The position numbers and the translations under genes were made by a program. From positions 2-64,001 of the forward strand of contig JAAYVG010000029.1 in NCBI GenBank assembly GCA_012517285.1: a stretch of DNA of 64,000 nucleotides, given 5' to 3'. Source of the stretch: Elusimicrobiota bacterium (GTDB lineage Bacteria > Elusimicrobiota > Elusimicrobia > Elusimicrobiales > UBA9959). The notes beneath the pieces are model-generated. The model ran no database searches, was not told where the DNA came from, and was given only the letters and a program-made list of their open reading frames with translations. Shown piece after piece: positions 5,418 to 62,046 of this stretch (its first letter is position 1; every line of letters starts with the position of its first letter).

Positions 5418-5671
5418 TTGTAGTACCCCTGATATCCCCTTGTCATTTGAAGGCTCAGATTTGAGATGGAGGGGATGATGGAGAAAATTAACCCGAAAAA
5501 TTCAGTTAACACTGTTTTTGCCAATGAAACTGCCATGATAATTTTATACAGCTCTTTTTCAATACAACATGGCTTTAACTGAAACATTTGGGTTAATAAA
5601 ATAAAAATAGTTATTATAGTATTGTTTGTTATATCCGACTTTTTAAGTTAAAAGAATCAGGGGAAACAGAG
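5418..5671. repeat. Possible decayed copy of the TIR element that interrupts nfi
   Basis: 5418-5470 aligns at about 80% with the left 52 bp of the element at 23111, including an identical ATTTGAAGGCTCAGATTTGAGATGGA, and is preceded by TA. A weak right-end match ATCAGGGG lies at 5656-5663. Interior differs. Confidence 0.3.
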
Positions 5672-11009: not shown

Positions 11010-11596
11010 TATTCATCCTTGCATCTAAATCTCCGAGAAGAATAAAACTTTTGAAAGAAAACGGTTATAAATTTAAGATTATTCCATCAAACATAGCAGA
11101 AAAATCCGATTATAAAAGGCCTGATCTCCTTGTAAAGGATTTGGCATATAGGAAAGCACTTCAAGTTGCTCAGAAATATCCTTCATCAGTAATTCTTGCA
11201 GCAGATACAATAGTTTATTGCTGCAAAAAGATAATTGGTAAGCCCAAAAATTCAGATGATGCTTTAAGACTTTTAAGGCTTCAATCAGGAAGGTGGCAGT
11301 CAGTTTATACAGGAGTTGCTCTTATTTGTCTCAAAAAAAATATTTTTCTGTGTGATTATGAAAAATCTCGATGCTATATGAAAAAGATGACCACAGAAAG
11401 GCTTAAGGATATAGCATCAAAGCATTTGGACAAAGCAGGTGGATGGGCTGTTCAAGACAGAAATGATTACCTTATAACAAAAATAAAAGGCAGATATGAC
11501 AATATCGTTGGCCTTCCTATGAACCTTGTAAACAAGTTTTTTAAAGAATTTCAAAAGCTGAGAACAGATGACAGAATTAATGGAACTGTTAAATAG
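11006..11596 (+). CDS. maf: Maf-like nucleoside triphosphate pyrophosphatase
   Basis: ILASKSPRR N-terminus and conserved Maf core. The present stop TAG is formed by TA plus the first G of the adjoining element. Confidence 0.9.
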   Translation: MIFILASKSPRRIKLLKENGYKFKIIPSNIAEKSDYKRPDLLVKDLAYRKALQVAQKYPSSVILAADTIVYCCKKIIGKPKNSDDALRLLRLQSGRWQSVYTGVALICLKKNIFLCDYEKSRCYMKKMTTERLKDIASKHLDKAGGWAVQDRNDYLITKIKGRYDNIVGLPMNLVNKFFKEFQKLRTDDRINGTVK

Positions 11597-11869
11597 GGTT
11601 CACTGAAAAAGTATATTTGAGCAATAAAGCAATGATTTTCGTTATGAGGCGAAAAGACGAGCGAGCATACTACAAAGTAGTCTGTAAGCGAGTTCTGACG
11701 AAGCCGTAGTAGAAAAGCATTATCTTTATTGCCAAAAGAAAGACAAAAAAGTGCAAGGTTTTTGCAACATTACACTAAAAATCGTGCACTTTCAAAGCAA
11801 TAATCTACTATAATCAAGACAATTATTCATTGGAAAAATCATCTTTCGTTAGACTTTTTCAGTGAACCC
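11596..11869 (+). mobile_element. 274-bp miniature TIR element (family M2), TA-flanked
   Basis: Terminal inverted repeats GGGTTCACTGAAAAAG / CTTTTTCAGTGAACCC. TA on both sides (11594-95, 11870-71). A near-identical inverted copy is at 43861-44134. No ORF. Confidence 0.8.
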
Positions 11870-14382: not shown

Positions 14383-15612
14383 ATGGACAACAATTACATA
14401 CAGGGTGATATATTTAATTACACAGAAGAAAAAAAAGAAAAAGAGCCAGAACACTTTGAAACAAGATCAAAAAAGGATTTTTATTTCTCCTATTCAAAAT
14501 TTTCACTCTACTCAGAATGTCCCTTAAAGTATAGATTTAAATACATAGATAAGATACCTGAAAAACCGAAAGCATTTTTTTATTTAGGAAGAGTAGTTCA
14601 TTCTGTACTTGAATTTTTTTATTCAAGGGTTCCACCACCTGATATCACCGAGCTGATAAATTACTTAAAAACTGAGTGGGAAAGAATACCATTTGATCAA
14701 AGGGGATATGCAACCAAGGAAGCTGAGAATCTTGATATAAACAAGACAATTAATATAATAAAAAACTTTTATATAAAGCACAAGGATAATGATAAAATAC
14801 CATTTCTTCTTGAGTATAAAACATTTGTTCCTATAGATAATATAGTTGCTAATATTATAGCTGATAAAATAGAATACGAGGGCAACGGGAAAATATCAAT
14901 AGTTGATTATAAAACAGGTAGAGAAGGAAACAGGAACAATGATCAACTTTATTTTTATCAGAAGATCTCTGAGATAGATCCCCAGATGATTGAGAAAATC
15001 AATAAAAAATATAATGAAAATGTAAAAAGAGTTGAAGTAAATAAAATGGTATATTATTATGTTGAAAAATTGAAAACTGTTGAATTTTCAAGAGCAAATG
15101 ACACTGAAATAGAAAGATTCTGGGAAAGGGTTTTAATGACAGTAGAAAACATTCAATCAAAGAAATTTGAACCAAAGCCTACCGAAAAAAGCTGTTCATG
15201 GTGTGATTATAAACAGGTATGTCCTGTTTATAACGATAAAAAAACTAACTCATTGAGCGAGCTTACAACAGAATTCATAAAACTTAAAAATAATATAGAA
15301 GAGCTTGAAGACAAAAAGAAAAAAATAGAGAAAGAAATTATTTCAATGATGGGCGAAAATAATGAGTTGTATGACACATCGCTGAATCTTAAATTTGAAA
15401 AAAATATGAAGTATGAATTTAAAAGCACTGATGAACTTGTAGAAATATTAAAAGCTAACGATTTATATGAGAAAGTTTCAAGACCAACTGTGAGAGCAGT
15501 GTTGGAACTATTAAAAAGTGATGAGATCAATAGTCAGATAAAAGATAAAATAAAAAAACTATCGAACATATCCTATCAGATAGTTGTAAAGGAAGAAAAG
15601 CAGAAAGAATAA
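14383..15612 (+). CDS. PD-(D/E)XK nuclease, RecB/Cas4-like, with C-terminal Cys cluster and coiled-coil tail
   Basis: IVDYKTG and QLYFY motifs of RecB-family nucleases. N-terminal Cys (SECP) plus CSWCDYKQVCP, typical of Cas4/AddB Fe-S nucleases. K/E-rich helical C-terminal ~120 aa. Confidence 0.75.
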   Translation: MDNNYIQGDIFNYTEEKKEKEPEHFETRSKKDFYFSYSKFSLYSECPLKYRFKYIDKIPEKPKAFFYLGRVVHSVLEFFYSRVPPPDITELINYLKTEWERIPFDQRGYATKEAENLDINKTINIIKNFYIKHKDNDKIPFLLEYKTFVPIDNIVANIIADKIEYEGNGKISIVDYKTGREGNRNNDQLYFYQKISEIDPQMIEKINKKYNENVKRVEVNKMVYYYVEKLKTVEFSRANDTEIERFWERVLMTVENIQSKKFEPKPTEKSCSWCDYKQVCPVYNDKKTNSLSELTTEFIKLKNNIEELEDKKKKIEKEIISMMGENNELYDTSLNLKFEKNMKYEFKSTDELVEILKANDLYEKVSRPTVRAVLELLKSDEINSQIKDKIKKLSNISYQIVVKEEKQKE

Positions 15613-15796
15613 TTAGTTGTCTGGTTATCTGGTGGTTTAGTTGTTTAGAAAGAGCTATCCTTCTACCAATACCCCAATTATTAATCATCTACTTCTCCAT
15701 TTTTATAGGTCCTTTATCCTATATACAAACAAGTCCAATATCTCTTGTTTATTATAATTTATTGTTTTATAATTTATTTATATTAGGAGGAGTAGT

Positions 15797-17674: not shown

Positions 17675-17767
17675 AAAACTATTTTACAATTTTTAATCAT
17701 CAGGATGTAAACAGATAGAAATCAAATGAAGACAGATTAAGTCAAGATAAAAACAGACAAATTGGTT

Positions 17768-17857
17768 ATTTAATCATCGAGATAAAAACAGATAAAAATC
17801 AAATGAAGACAGACAAATTAGTTATTTGGTCATTTGGTTGTTTAGTTATTTAGGAAG
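17768..17857. repeat. ~90-bp direct repeat, copy 1
   Basis: TTTAATCATCGAGATAAAAACAGATAAAAATCAAATGAAGACAGACAAATTAGTTATTTGGTCATTTGGTTGTTTAGTTATTTAGGAAG is repeated essentially identically at 18271-18359. Confidence 0.85.
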
Positions 17858-17956
17858 AAAGGGAAAATTAGTTATTTAGTCATCTCGTTATTTGGTTATT
17901 TAGCAAGAACAAATTCGTTGTTTAGAAAAACAATTTTATTATTTATTGTCTGATAT

Positions 17957-18102
17957 AAAAAATCGACAAAAAAAAGACGATCGTCTCAAAAATGTAAATT
18001 TTTAGTTTAAAATTAGTGTTAAAACTAAGTTTTCTCCTATGGGAATGTGTATATTTAAAAATCGACAAAAAAAAGACGATCGTCTTTTTTTTGTCGATTT
18101 TT
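17957..18102. repeat. Composite element: half palindrome, ~70-nt spacer, full 46-bp palindrome (family F)
   Basis: Aligns at roughly 90% by eye with 55929-56073 in the same orientation, including the spacer AAAAATGTAAATTTTTAGTTTAAAATTAGT.TTAAAA.TAAGTTTT. Confidence 0.8.
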
Positions 18103-18270
18103 GAAAAAAACTTAATGGAATTTGTTAACAATAATTAGAGCATACTCTAAAAGTTATCTGGTTGTTTAATCATCAGTATGTAATCATCAAGATAAAGACG
18201 GACTAATTAGTTATTTAGTTGTCTGGTTGTTTGGTTATTTAGGAAGAAAAAGAGGATAGTTGTCTGATTG

Positions 18271-18359
18271 TTTAATCATCGAGATAAAAACAGATAAAAA
18301 TCAAATGAAGACAGACAAATTAGTTATTTGGTCATTTGGTTGTTTAGTTATTTAGGAAG
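18271..18359. repeat. ~90-bp direct repeat, copy 2
   Basis: See 17768-17857. The two copies bracket the family F composite element just upstream of tRNA-His. Confidence 0.85.
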
Positions 18360-18474
18360 CAAGGATAAATTAATTGTTTAATCATTCAATTAGGTGCCTT
18401 TTTATTATTTTAATATATAATAATTTTATTACAACAACTATTCCTTTAATTTTGTAGAATATTATTATAAAGAT

Positions 18475-22776: not shown

Positions 22777-22900
22777 AGAAAGTATTCAGTGGTTAGTGTT
22801 CAGTCAAACAAGGAATTCCTTTAAATTCTAACTTTTGATATCTGTTTTCTGGCATCTGATTAGATTAGTGTTGTCCTGTCTGTTTTCATCATGATGATTT

Positions 22901-23842
22901 ATGGATACTCAAAAACTTATAGAGATACAAAAATCAATATACAAAAAGATTAAGATAAAGCCATATAACAAGGAATTTAGAAAAATTCTTGCATTTGATA
23001 TATCTTTTGATAATGACGATGGATACTGTGTTGGGGTTATGCTTGATAGAGATTTTAAAATAATTGAGGAAAAATATACATTTGAAAGGGTAAGATTCCC
23101 ATATATTCTAGTGTAGTGTCCCTAATATTTCTTGATATTTGAAGGCTCAGATTTGAGATGGATACGAGGCGCGACGAACGAGCCCCGATTTATCGGGGTA
23201 AGCGAGAAGCAACGAAGTATGCGGCCAAAGATGAGCCTCCCCAAAGGGGCTGGCCACTTTTCGGCTGCGACTGCGTCACTCGTCGCTCATATAGTCCCAC
23301 TATATTCGCTCCTCGTTTCTTGTCTCGCCCGCCTGCCGAAGCCGCTTCGGCGTAGGCAGGCTCTAAAATTGGCCAGTCAAATGTAAAGAACTGTTAGGGA
23401 CACTACACTAGGATTTCTAATGTTCAGGGAGATGCCCTTGATATTAAAAACATATAAAAAATTTAGTAATAAACCGGATATAATCTTGATTGATGGTCAT
23501 GGAACACTTCATCCGAGGAGATGCGGGATAGCTGTGGCATTCGGGGTTAAGGTTAAGAAGCCAACCATAGGTGTTGCAAAGTCATTTTTATATGGTATAT
23601 ATGAAGAACCAGATAATAAAAAAAATTCATTCTCTTATGTATATGACAAGAATGGTGATAAGATAGGTGCTGTTTTAAGAACGAGAGAAAATACTAAACC
23701 TGTCTTTGTCTCTCCCGGAAATCTTATTGATATATCATCATCAATTAAAGCAGTTAAAAAACTAATCGGCAAATACAGAATAATAGAGCCACTTCGTATT
23801 GCCCATATAGAATCAAACAGGTTTAGAAAGGGATGTATTTAG
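22901..23842 (+). pseudogene. nfi: Endonuclease V gene interrupted by a 298-bp TIR element
   Basis: 22901-23110 encodes the N-terminal part (AFDISF...RFPYIL). 23411-23842 continues GFLMFREMP...DGHGTLHPRRCGIA..GVAKS. Removing 23111-23410 rejoins PYIL|GFLMFRE in frame. Confidence 0.85.
23111..23408 (+). mobile_element. 298-bp GC-rich miniature TIR element (family M1), TA-flanked
   Basis: TIRs GTGTAGTGTCCCTAA / TTAGGGACACTACAC. TA at 23109-10 and 23409-10. One interior line counts 63% G+C with multiple hairpins. Its internal ORFs are rejected. Confidence 0.8.
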
Positions 23843-38412: not shown

Positions 38413-38616
38413 CCACACCGAAAGTAACCGCGTAGGTTACTTTGGTTTTAATTCTGATATGAGAAGGGGGAAACTGGTAAATGACATATTTTCATTTGTA
38501 TATTTTTCAGCCCTTTCACAAGCAATAGAAATATTATCACTCATATTTTTAACCCAATCTTCCCTTTCTAAAAAATTTTCATCAGTTGAATAGTCAGGGA
38601 TATATTTTTTTAAGTA
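38413..38616. repeat. ~204-bp direct repeat, copy A: orphan copy of the rloB 3' end plus its terminator hairpin
   Basis: Matches 43567-43769 with a single substitution that I could find (A/G at CACA[A/G]GCAAT). Identity collapses abruptly beyond 38616. Confidence 0.9.
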
Positions 38617-38689: not shown

Positions 38690-38905
38690 CATTCTAACGA
38701 CAGGTTAAGGTTAAGATTGAGGTCAAGAAGAAAACGACAAATCCCCATCAAAATAGCGAACAGAGGTCAGAAGTCAGAGGAGAGACAAATAGGGAATTTT
38801 CTTAAATTCTGTTTCGTGCTTTCTGTCTTCTGTCATCTGTTTTCTGACTTCTGTTTCCACTAAACAACCAGACAACTAAATAACCAGACAACTAATACGC
38901 TACTC
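38690..38905. repeat. Composite dispersed repeat (GTTAAGGTTAAG, CAGAAGTCAGAG and AACCAGACAACTAA words)
   Basis: Its reverse complement aligns along its length with 61855-62046, e.g. GGAAACAGAAGTCAGAA.ACAGA...GACAGAAAGCACGAAACAG.ATTTAAGAA and CTCAATCTTAACCTTAACCTG. Confidence 0.7.
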
Positions 38906-43415: not shown

Positions 43416-43566
43416 AACTCTTCTCAAATTCCATACGATCGTGTCAGAATGAAGGAAAACTATTTTAAATTTTATATAAATTTTTTATGTATAAAGTCTA
43501 TATTTTATTTAAAAAATGCAGAAGTCGGGTCTGAATACAAAGTGGAGTTAGTAGATTAGCTGATCC

Positions 43567-43769
43567 CACACCGAAAGTAACCGCGTAGGTTACTTTGGTT
43601 TTAATTCTGATATGAGAAGGGGGAAACTGGTAAATGACATATTTTCATTTGTATATTTTTCAGCCCTTTCACAGGCAATAGAAATATTATCACTCATATT
43701 TTTAACCCAATCTTCCCTTTCTAAAAAATTTTCATCAGTTGAATAGTCAGGGATATATTTTTTTAAGTA
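43567..43769. repeat. ~204-bp direct repeat, copy B (in situ 3' end of rloB)
   Basis: See 38413-38616. Confidence 0.9.
43573..43599 (-). terminator. Hairpin CCAAAGTAACC-TACGC-GGTTACTTTCGG after the rloB stop (family G)
   Basis: Starts 9 nt beyond the stop codon on the minus strand. Same hairpin at 38419-38445 and 51755-51776. No clear U tract. Confidence 0.45.
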
Positions 43770-44444
43770 TTTTTTTAATTCGGTTGCAATAAATACCTTA
43801 TTTGTATCTTCAAAGTGTAATAAGAACCAGTATTCTATTGAAGGATTGCTTGTTATCGTGGGGCTCACTGAAAAAGTCTAACGAAAGATAATTTTCCAAA
43901 TGAATAGTTGTCTCGATTATAGTGTATTATTGCTTTAAAAGTGCACGATTTTTAAAGTAATGTTGCAAAACCCATGCATTTTTTTATCTTTCTTTTGGCA
44001 ATAAAGATAATGCTTTTCTACTACGGCTTCGTCAGAACTCGCTTACAGACTACTTTGTAGTATGCTCGGTCGTCTTTTCGCCTCATAACGAAAATCCTTG
44101 TTTTATTGCTCAAATAGACTTTTTCAGTGAACCCTAAACAGATTTTTATTTTTATTATTTTCTTTTAACTTTTTATAGCTGTCTAAATTATTTTCCACAT
44201 CTTTTATATAAAATGCGAGGTAGTCTCTACCTGATTCTGATATATCTTTTATTTTTCTTTTAATTTTTTTATACGAATTACCTATTCCAAAATCTGCTCT
44301 TTTTAAATGAATAGAAAAATTATCAGGATGATTTAGTTTTAATTTCATTAAATGTTTTAAATAAAAAAATTCAGTCAGTCCATCGCCGTAAAAATATAAA
44401 ACCTTTTTTAATATTCTATTCCCAGATTTTCTGTAATTAGTCAT
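43590..44444 (-). pseudogene. RloB-like protein gene interrupted by a 274-bp TIR element
   Basis: 44135-44444 is the N-terminal part. 43590-43858 is the C-terminal part with SNPSIEYWFLLHFE (RloB-like signature). Removing 43861-44134 plus one flanking dinucleotide rejoins KNLF|TITSNP in frame. Confidence 0.8.
43861..44134 (-). mobile_element. 274-bp miniature TIR element (family M2), inverted copy
   Basis: Same length as, and near-identical by eye to, the reverse complement of 11596-11869. Flanked by TA (44135-36) and TG (43859-60). Confidence 0.8.
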
Positions 44445-55696: not shown

Positions 55697-55928
55697 AACT
55701 CCTCCGACATAACATAAAATCTAAAAGAACCGTCCAATTCAATCCAGCTTAAGTTCTATGAAAAGTTTAATATACCTTTATTATATTTATAAGTGAAAAA
55801 AGACCTAAGGTCAATAGGATAAAGGGCCTATAATAAATATCAATACATTCGTAAACACAATTTAGCTATTTAGTTATCTGGTTGTCTGGTTATTTAGTAA
55901 GACAATTTTGTTATTTGTTATCTAATTT

Positions 55929-56073
55929 AAAAAATCGACAAAAAAAAGACGATTGTCCCAAAAATGTAAATTTTTAGTTTAAAATTAGTATTAAAATTAA
56001 GTTTTATCCTATGAAAATGTGCGTATTAAAAAATCGACAAAAAAAAGACGATCGTCTTTTTTTTGTCGATTTT
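55929..56073. repeat. Second copy of the family F composite element (half palindrome, spacer, full palindrome)
   Basis: See 17957-18102. Confidence 0.8.
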
Positions 56074-56155
56074 GAAAAAAAACTTAATGAAATTCATTAA
56101 TAATACTTAGGGAAAAAGTCGAAAAAAGTTATATAGGTCAATAAGACCAAATTAT

Positions 56156-58331: not shown

Positions 58332-58362
58332 GCCTGCCGAAGCCGTTTTGGCGTAGGCAGGT
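58332..58362. repeat. Hairpin GCCTGCCGAAGCCGTTTTGGCGTAGGCAGG (family H)
   Basis: Near-identical hairpin lies inside the nfi-interrupting element at 23331-23361 (GCCTGCCGAAGCCGCTTCGGCGTAGGCAGGC). Confidence 0.8.
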
Positions 58363-61854: not shown

Positions 61855-62046
61855 ACAGTTATCTATTTAGTTATCTGGTTGTCTAATGGAAACAGAAGTC
61901 AGAAGACAGAAGACGGAGGACAGAAAGCACGAAACAGGATTTAAGAAGTCAGAAGAATAAAAAGAAATCACTCTTTATCTGCTTTCTGTTTTCTTCTTAA
62001 CCTCAATCTTAACCTTAACCTGCAGTAATCTACGAGGTTACTTCTG
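61855..62046. repeat. Composite dispersed repeat, inverted relative of 38690-38905
   Basis: See 38690-38905. Ends with a family G variant hairpin, AGTAATCTACGAGGTTACT. Confidence 0.7.

Follow-up and report, generated by a model that had tools for sequence, protein, structure and literature searches.

An IS630-type miniature element, very probably, interrupts the endonuclease V gene of an Elusimicrobia genome and carries a conserved, hairpin-rich core

The nfi locus and its interruption

The window analysed here is a 64-kb stretch of contig JAAYVG010000029.1 from an Elusimicrobia metagenome-assembled genome (MAG) held at NCBI, in which the endonuclease V gene (nfi, 22901-23842) is divided in two by a 298-bp element at 23111-23408. 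The 5′ part of nfi (codons 1-70) lies at 22901-23110 on the forward strand and ends with the left copy of a duplicated TA, while the 3′ part (codons 71-213 with the stop codon) lies at 23411-23842 on the same strand and contains a 140-aa open reading frame (ORF) that is open from the ATG at 23420. At NCBI the two halves appear as separate entries; the ORF running from 22901 to a stop at 23116 (71 aa) is the hypothetical protein NLH39360.1, and the 3′ part is NLH39361.1, a 134-aa fragment annotated as endonuclease V. The left junction reads ...CCATATATTC-TA-GTGTAGTGTCCCTAA... and the right one ...TTAGGGACACTACAC-TA-GGATTTCTAATG..., after which the remainder of nfi stays open to 23842.

An earlier note on this DNA, made from the letters alone, had described a 298-bp element with terminal inverted repeats and TA on both sides that splits nfi, stops its frame two codons into the element and divides the PYIxGFLxFRE motif, and this description is correct in each part. 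The frame at the junction is ...FPYILV*, with the stop at the second codon of the element, and three stop codons in all lie in the nfi frame across the insert. When the element and one TA (300 bp) were deleted in silico, a 642-nt ORF with a 213-aa product was obtained, which matches Pfam Endonuclease_5 (PF04493) at 2e-60 over residues 13-202 and, among solved Nfi structures, PDB 2w35 at 2.7e-52 over residues 4-212. That this restoration is exact had been taken as special, yet it follows from any target-duplicating insertion, since removal of the inserted sequence together with one copy of the duplicated TA always restores the frame. Likewise, the size of 300 bp is indeed a multiple of three, but it loses its significance with at least three stop codons in each of the six frames of the element.

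The anatomy of the element is directly visible. The two copies of the TA target site are found at 23109-23110, within the original CTAG, and at 23409-23410. A perfect inverted repeat of 15 nt, GTGTAGTGTCCCTAA, forms the two ends and can be extended to 38 nt with 87% match; the left terminal inverted repeat (23111-23142, forward strand) is perfect over 23111-23125 and imperfect to about 32 nt, and the right one (23377-23408, reverse strand) matches the left end of a 1.13-kb insertion sequence (IS), described below, at 31 of 35 positions. Between them, on the forward strand, a left-arm hairpin, GAGCCCCGATTTATCGGGGT, is located at 23180-23199 and is common to eight of ten aligned family members, all eight of which had been retrieved through that same 20-mer. 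It is followed by a central hairpin, GCCTCCCC-AAA-GGGGCTGGC (23235-23254), whose sequence and length differ between family members, by a right-arm hairpin, ATATAGTCCCACTATAT (23289-23305), which covaries across the family (helix 6 of the pair count), and by an extra 31-nt GC-rich hairpin, GCCTGCCGAAGCCGCTTCGGCGTAGGCAGGC (23331-23361), missing from every other aligned member.

The insert had been called GC-rich and packed with hairpins in a genome of about 30% G+C. Its G+C content is 52%, with peaks of 59-61% in windows of 80-100 nt, so that this stands, although the background, taken over the 64 kb, is 33%. Folded as RNA it reaches -147.7 kcal/mol (z = -11.4 against dinucleotide shuffles), and the opposite strand is nearly as stable. 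The element has no coding capacity: its internal ORFs gave no Pfam match, and an 84-aa ORF compared with 5.8 billion proteins, a search meant to find other copies, returned zero homologues. A search of 22800-23700 against Rfam 15 at E ≤ 10 gave one spurious snoRNA match only (E = 6); over the whole window at gathering scores two tRNAs were detected and no intron or ribozyme family. Promoter and terminator sites predicted at the locus were fewer than in shuffled sequences.

A twin of the extra hairpin GCCTGCCGAAGCCGCTTCGGCGTAGGCAGGC, with three mismatches, lies at 58332-58362 just downstream of a gene, where none is expected by chance. The pair may represent a hairpin that is small and itself mobile or REP-like, or else the element may have picked up this sequence. 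Another fragment of interest is found on the forward strand at 5418-5470, in an intergenic position. It is a solo left end of a related element, in which a diverged terminal repeat, TTGTAGTACCCCTGATATCC, is followed by about 26 nt common with the start of the element interior (TTTGAAGGCTCAGATTTGAGATGGA).

Assignment to the IS630/Tc1-mariner family

The insert is very probably a non-autonomous miniature inverted-repeat transposable element (MITE) of the IS630/Tc1-mariner family, because it occupies the TA of a CTAG target, has the ends of IS630-type elements, and holds neither a transposase nor any coding capacity. IS630 is known to target the TA of CTAG with a 2-bp TA duplication (PMC2577343), and its relative ISY100 transposes into TA only, its transposase and the inverted repeats being sufficient (PMC2170065). 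The TA duplication, the CTAG target, the shared ends, the small noncoding size and the existence of both filled and empty sites were all observed here; the earlier remark that the insert is not a typical MITE therefore holds for its composition only.

The evidence for the shared ends comes from an 18-mer of the terminal repeat, CTAGTGTAGTGTCCCTAA, which has exact matches in 109 loci of a collection of species-representative genomes. These belong to Nitrospirota, Planctomycetota, Omnitrophota, Elusimicrobia, Acidobacteriota, Methylomirabilota and others, and the matches lie very often at contig ends, which fits a dispersed repeat. Both ends are present in 21 of the 109 loci, giving ten elements of 1133-1211 bp and eleven short elements (MITEs) of 119-272 bp. 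Every complete pair with this terminal repeat is flanked as cTA...TAg on both sides, while the search pattern had imposed the flank on one side only. The 1.13-kb elements (1133-1138 bp) carry a single gene, whose product of 354-364 aa contains HTH and DDE_3 domains and reaches 247 bits with the NCBIfam model NF033545 (IS630 family transposase; cut-off 100), and one full-length 1.13-kb IS (L082) is itself in an Elusimicrobia MAG. The left end of the element matches either end of the 1.13-kb IS about equally, at 25-28 of 35 positions. In a blastn comparison with the 109 loci the overlap between the window element and the IS covers the terminal 30-34 nt only and the interiors are unrelated; a later profile search of the same loci detected one member of the interior family (L062) together with fragments in L020, L052 and L061.

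We found no earlier account of the family in Rfam, among plasmid or phage records, or in the literature that could be searched. Viral contigs, plasmids and phages gave one unrelated match to the terminal repeat and nothing for the interior, and a literature search for the terminal-repeat sequence returned unrelated PCR primers only. Nothing in the locus alters the known workings of such elements. It does offer, for Elusimicrobia, a clear case in which filled and empty sites of an IS630-type MITE can be compared.

The CTAG target and the proposed insertion event

The window holds 5,901 TA dinucleotides and only ten CTAG sites, two of which are the element's own junctions, so that the choice of target is not random. 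From trinucleotide counts 74 CTAG would be expected, and from base composition 197; the tetranucleotide thus stands at 0.14 of expectation, a depletion of about sevenfold. The other CTAG sites are at 1765, 2568, 4793, 4808, 19698, 23870, 51801 and 56818. GTAC (0.29), CATG (0.34) and GATC (0.46) are also depleted in the window, and this pattern fits restriction avoidance or the effects of very-short-patch repair.

At the insertion site the relatives described below read ATT-TCA-GGA (Ser), a sister strain has CCA (Pro) and the window has CTA (Leu), the three codons being linked by single transitions. The restored motif of the window is PYILGFL, and the equivalent residue in 89 homologues is Pro in 78, Ser in 7, Thr in 4 and Leu in none. 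Since Leu is absent from these homologues, the allele that preceded the insertion already had an unusual substitution in a conserved motif. It was this Ser/Pro-to-Leu change in PYI(P/S)GF that created the CTAG target, one of very few in the region. In a genome that avoids CTAG, a single codon change can in this manner give rise to one of the rare sites that such an element prefers.

The event itself would have followed the usual course. An IS630-type transposase, supplied from elsewhere in the genome or by a transient element, would bind the two terminal inverted repeats, excise the element from its donor site and paste it into the TA of the CTAG inside nfi. Repair of the staggered joints would then duplicate the TA. 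With the insertion, stop codons enter the nfi frame after two codons and the lesion-recognition motif is split. The insertion is recent and lineage-specific, because neither the TA duplication nor the 15-nt repeats contain a mismatch, both parts of the gene have stayed open, and nfi is intact in relatives with 97-98% identity.

A GC-rich core common to the MITE family

Relatives of the element's interior were found by a scan with an interior 20-mer and then by a profile search, and ten complete elements were aligned: the window copy (23111-23408) and those at loci L115, L160, L210, L062, L145, L178, L182, L130 and L208. They have in common a core of about 200 nt with the conserved blocks GATTTGAG, TTCAAGG, GACGA, GGCCAAAG, CTTTT, CTGCGTCACTCGTC, TCCTCG, CCTTG and AAAAT, between which variable hairpins are placed. 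The core is found between at least four types of terminal repeats, most of them with TA flanks. Ends of the type GTGTAGTGTCCC occur in the window element, L115, L160 and L062, with a variant, GTGTGGTGAGTC, in L210; CTGAGGGTCACTAAT delimits L178 and L182, the latter in the sister strain of the window's organism; AGTGCTCTGTAA delimits L145/L151; and TTGACCKTTAACTAATAATGGATAC delimits L130 and L208b. At L145 (1657-2185) and L151 (1134-1662) a 263-bp MITE (1770-2032) is nested in a 529-bp MITE of another end type. Such nesting is a possible route for recombining ends and cores.

The internal structure is conserved among the copies, a point on which the earlier note had left its reading to depend. 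With the terminal stem excluded, pairing in the predicted interior helices amounts to 89.4%; sliding the partners by 1-3 columns lowers it to 33-40%. In 21 of 35 interior pairs both partners differ between members, and no column shuffle out of 500 gave values as high as those observed. These figures concern a structure that was itself predicted from the ten aligned, related elements, eight of which had been found via one shared hairpin, and the right arm is poorly aligned. Rod-like and two-arm folds of the element also compete.

Every member has a G+C content of 0.44-0.52, against 0.32-0.44 in its flanks, and the hosts are uncultured, mostly low-GC bacteria. High G+C and dense hairpins are a trait of the MITE family itself, in which a conserved, quasi-palindromic core moves from one set of IS630-type ends to another. 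All other copies of the family lie between genes or at gene ends, which makes the mid-gene position in nfi an accident. The family may be useful for asking how MITEs gain new ends and whether internal structure is selected.

The scan with the interior 20-mer also returned 119 metagenome matches, mostly to the tip of a 23S rRNA helix, with one in 16S rRNA and the others in terminators or unrelated small repeats. The 20-mer GAGCCCCGATTTATCGGGGT (loci L113-L231, e.g. L116, L127 and L125) is identical to the tip of a helix in numerous and diverse 23S rRNA genes. Derivation of the interior from rRNA, or a shared protein-binding motif, was rejected, the similarity ending at the hairpin. We judge the recurrence of GAGCCCCGATTTATCGGGGT to be a chance repeat of a stable hairpin, as a 7-bp stem, a 4-nt loop and 2 flanking bases leave about 13 free positions, few enough for such a hairpin to turn up by chance in so large a collection. 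A separate repeat, GTCATT(G/C)CGAGC-hairpin-GTGAGG(C/A)AATC, carries the same hairpin at L142, L167, L168, L174, L187, L193, L219 and L221; it looks like a widespread short structured family with interchangeable hairpin tips.

Possible role of the core at the RNA level

In all ten members, which represent about six independent lineages, one and the same strand gives the more stable fold, the difference being 1.3-14.6 kcal/mol. The favoured strand has more G-U pairs (e.g. 11 vs 0), its left arm being purine-rich and its right arm pyrimidine-rich. IS630-type transposition works on double-stranded DNA, and a bias confined to one strand therefore hints at selection on a transcript. Perhaps, then, the GC-rich core functions as a structured RNA, or is under selection as a structure of another kind, and is carried on several sets of IS630-type ends, with the nfi insert as one landing among others. 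We consider this unlikely, though it would account for the recurrence of the core between different terminal repeats, for the compensatory pairing, for the common folding strand with its excess of G-U pairs and for a G+C content above that of the flanks in every host. Against a structured RNA, Rfam holds no match, the orientation to neighbouring genes is mixed (about five sense and four antisense), and no internal promoter or terminator is conserved among the family members. Palindromic DNA repeats can moreover keep their complementarity through DNA-level processes, and the narrow sampling behind the structure test and the competition between the two folds, both mentioned above, tell in the same direction. 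The narrower proposal, in which a strand-specific structured RNA or single-strand structure has been selected, has repeatedly exchanged its ends and can be moved by several IS630-type transposases, is rather unlikely. If this is true, the core would be not the remnant of an IS but a mobile RNA module, and its landing in nfi would have put the structure inside an mRNA. An RNA-level role of whatever kind is possible but unlikely and does not affect the fate of nfi, and in nfi itself the core presumably has none.

Some of these observations nevertheless weigh against taking the insert for nothing but a passive MITE. A passive MITE would need neither a core so strongly conserved, with compensatory changes, between terminal-repeat types nor a strand that consistently folds better than the other. 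The 64-kb window contains one complete copy and one fragment only, and no transposase; mobilisation in trans by a cognate enzyme is for this last reason something we infer. Low-level reversion of nfi, or some other rescue of the gene, might conceivably occur.

Empty sites and a second nfi lesion in relatives

Related genomes with an intact nfi, against which the earlier note had proposed to compare the element, do exist. Six related contigs (L110, L234-L237 and L111) have an empty site, an intact gene and the same gene order (CoA-binding protein, PCMT, nfi, TraF-like); in five of the contigs with the intact gene, which are of the same species, nfi is about 97.5-97.8% identical in nucleotide sequence. 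A lower identity to a relative upstream of the element (94.5% vs 99.0%) was considered as a sign of a breakpoint at the element and rejected, as it is due to divergent patches at 20.6-21.0 and 21.6-21.8 kb.

A sister strain (L233, contig Ga0302250_1000099) is 96-98% identical to the window over about 10 kb, and its nfi is broken by a different lesion. In the region homologous to window positions 22901-23842 (L233:6001-6634) it reads ...CCATATATT-CCAG-ATGTTC..., with an 8-bp deletion of GATTTCTA just after the insertion point of the window element. The gene is split into ORFs of 82 and 140 aa, and the frameshifted product is present on three contigs. This independent frameshift indicates that the species tolerates the loss of nfi. 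Synonymous and nonsynonymous codon differences, small in number, are 5:8, 3:7 and 5:6 among nfi alleles and 9:6, 6:4, 2:4, 4:0 and 3:1 in neighbouring genes, which suggests a relaxed constraint on nfi compared with its neighbours.

In a gene of 642 bp, two distinct lesions would fall within about 10 bp of each other with a chance of about 1-3%, and their adjacency could be due to coincidence, to a hotspot or to an excision scar. In the last case the deletion in L233 would be what was left by an earlier MITE insertion and its imprecise excision at a recurrent transposon target. The L233 contig holds a type-2 copy of the MITE family elsewhere (L182), type-2 ends finish in ...CAG, and ISY100 at times cuts 1-8 nt beyond its ends, as seen on linear substrates (PMC2170065). 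Yet the sequence ATT-CCA-G|ATG is most simply derived by a single 8-bp deletion from the CCA (Pro) allele, L233 shows no TA-NN-TA footprint, and the intact alleles closest to it have no TA at that position. An origin as an excision scar is therefore quite unlikely.

Fate of the interrupted gene

Given the three in-frame stops and the split lesion-recognition motif, the endonuclease V of this strain is most likely inactive and nfi most likely a plain pseudogene. The loss of Nfi activity is a step that we infer from the gene's sequence, and it would leave the strain probably without endonuclease V repair of deaminated bases. In this genome the gene should be annotated as a pseudogene disrupted by a MITE. 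The earlier note had set a dead gene against removal of the element at the DNA or RNA level, and the second branch did not hold up: no Rfam family matches the insert, the three stops lie in frame, and excision by a transposase of the IS630 family leaves TA-NN-TA, a 4-bp scar that shifts the frame (PMC2170065). Nor does the gene appear to need any rescue, with the other members of the family lying between genes or at gene ends, a sister strain in which nfi is simply frameshifted, and a species that tolerates the loss.

Precise loss could nonetheless be imagined without a transposase. The CTAG at either junction (23108-23111 and 23408-23411) would be brought next to its counterpart by the 38-nt terminal stem, and slippage or recombination between the two would yield the junction ...ATTCTAGGATTT... 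and restore nfi in a subpopulation, a reversible DNA switch for which both gene halves, still intact, would be ready. This is very unlikely. A repeat of 4 nt is very short for slippage, and excision by the transposase would leave the scar already mentioned instead of a clean site. The intact alleles of the relatives read TCA and not CTA, so that none is a revertant of the window allele, and the exact restored protein sequence was not found among 15 billion catalogued sequences.

Removal of the element from the mRNA, by intron-like splicing or by processing and ligation so that full-length Nfi is made, is extremely improbable: the element with one TA measures 300 nt and its ends would pair into a long stem that sets the exon ends side by side, but no Rfam family, introns and ribozymes included, matches even at E ≤ 10, a long perfect duplex in RNA would be cleaved rather than ligated, as with RNase III on MITE stems (PMC2229807), the family lies between genes in every other case, the restored protein would have Leu at a position occupied by Pro, Ser or Thr in all 89 homologues, and the sister strain is simply frameshifted. 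A self-splicing intron (group I or II) or a known ribozyme was accordingly ruled out, there being no covariance-model match in Rfam. An assembly artefact, in which foreign GC-rich reads were joined into an AT-rich contig, is just as remote even for a MAG with an insert so sharply unlike its flanks, since the junctions bear the exact IS630 signature (TA duplication, CTAG and perfect inverted repeats) that no assembler makes, no repeat is available for a chimeric join, a related fragment lies elsewhere in the window and the same family is present in the sister strain. The disruption of nfi is an ordinary insertional knock-out, and only the modular, compensated core exceeds the ordinary.

Comparison with known elements

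Among described elements, RUP of pneumococcus, thought to be mobilised by IS630-Spn1, is similar to the nfi insert in being short and non-autonomous, with ends matching IS630 and insertion at TA (PMC2229807). RUP-like short elements with IS630-type ends are considered likely to be mobilised in trans; RUP is also mostly intergenic and able to inactivate the genes it enters (PMC2229807). It differs in its length of 107 bp, its AT-rich composition and its restriction to one species, whereas the nfi element is 298 bp long, GC-rich relative to its host, and contains a core of about 200 nt that is unrelated to the IS and common to several terminal-repeat types.

The Correia/NEMIS elements of Neisseria are likewise TA-flanked MITEs with terminal inverted repeats that form long stem-loops when transcribed (PMC2229807). 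As RNA, these stems undergo processing by RNase III and change how stable the neighbouring mRNAs are (PMC2229807). They have no sequence similarity to the nfi element, are 107-155 bp in length, contain an IHF site and form a simple stem-loop, while the core described here is branched and has several hairpins. For Correia, ERIC and YPAL it was proposed that transcribed stems affect mRNA stability (PMC2229807), and a role of the core, if any, would be similar.

With IS630 of Shigella and ISY100 of Synechocystis the element presumably shares its chemistry, together with the TA duplication and the preference for CTAG (PMC2577343). The terminal repeats of these ISs are bound by an HTH-DDE transposase (PMC2170065), and the 1.13-kb partners of the nfi element score as IS630 family transposases, but the element itself lacks a transposase and shares only its terminal ~30 nt with the IS. 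Small palindromic mobile repeats within conserved protein-coding genes are known from RPE of Rickettsia and from in-frame fusions of ERIC and YPAL (PMC2229807). Unlike the nfi insert, these leave the frame open, so that an additional peptide segment is made within a host protein that remains active; an RPE-like, in-frame translated palindromic element was ruled out here by the three stops in the nfi frame.

Other repeats in the window

Short AT-rich intergenic repeats, e.g. TTAGTTATTTGGTCATTTGGTTGTTTAG, are dense in the window and occur at 1726-1853, 15598-15655, 17692-18404, 38799-38896, 55847-56110 and 61859-61947. The same AT-rich repeat regions include several copies of a 46-nt perfect palindrome, AAAAATCGACAAAAAAAAGACGATCGTCTTTTTTTTGTCGATTTTT. 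Two longer repeats were also detected: an inverted repeat of 276 nt (93%) at 11594-11869 and 43861-44136, with its arms 32 kb apart, and a direct repeat of 204 nt (100%) at 38413-38616 and 43566-43769, with its copies 5 kb apart.

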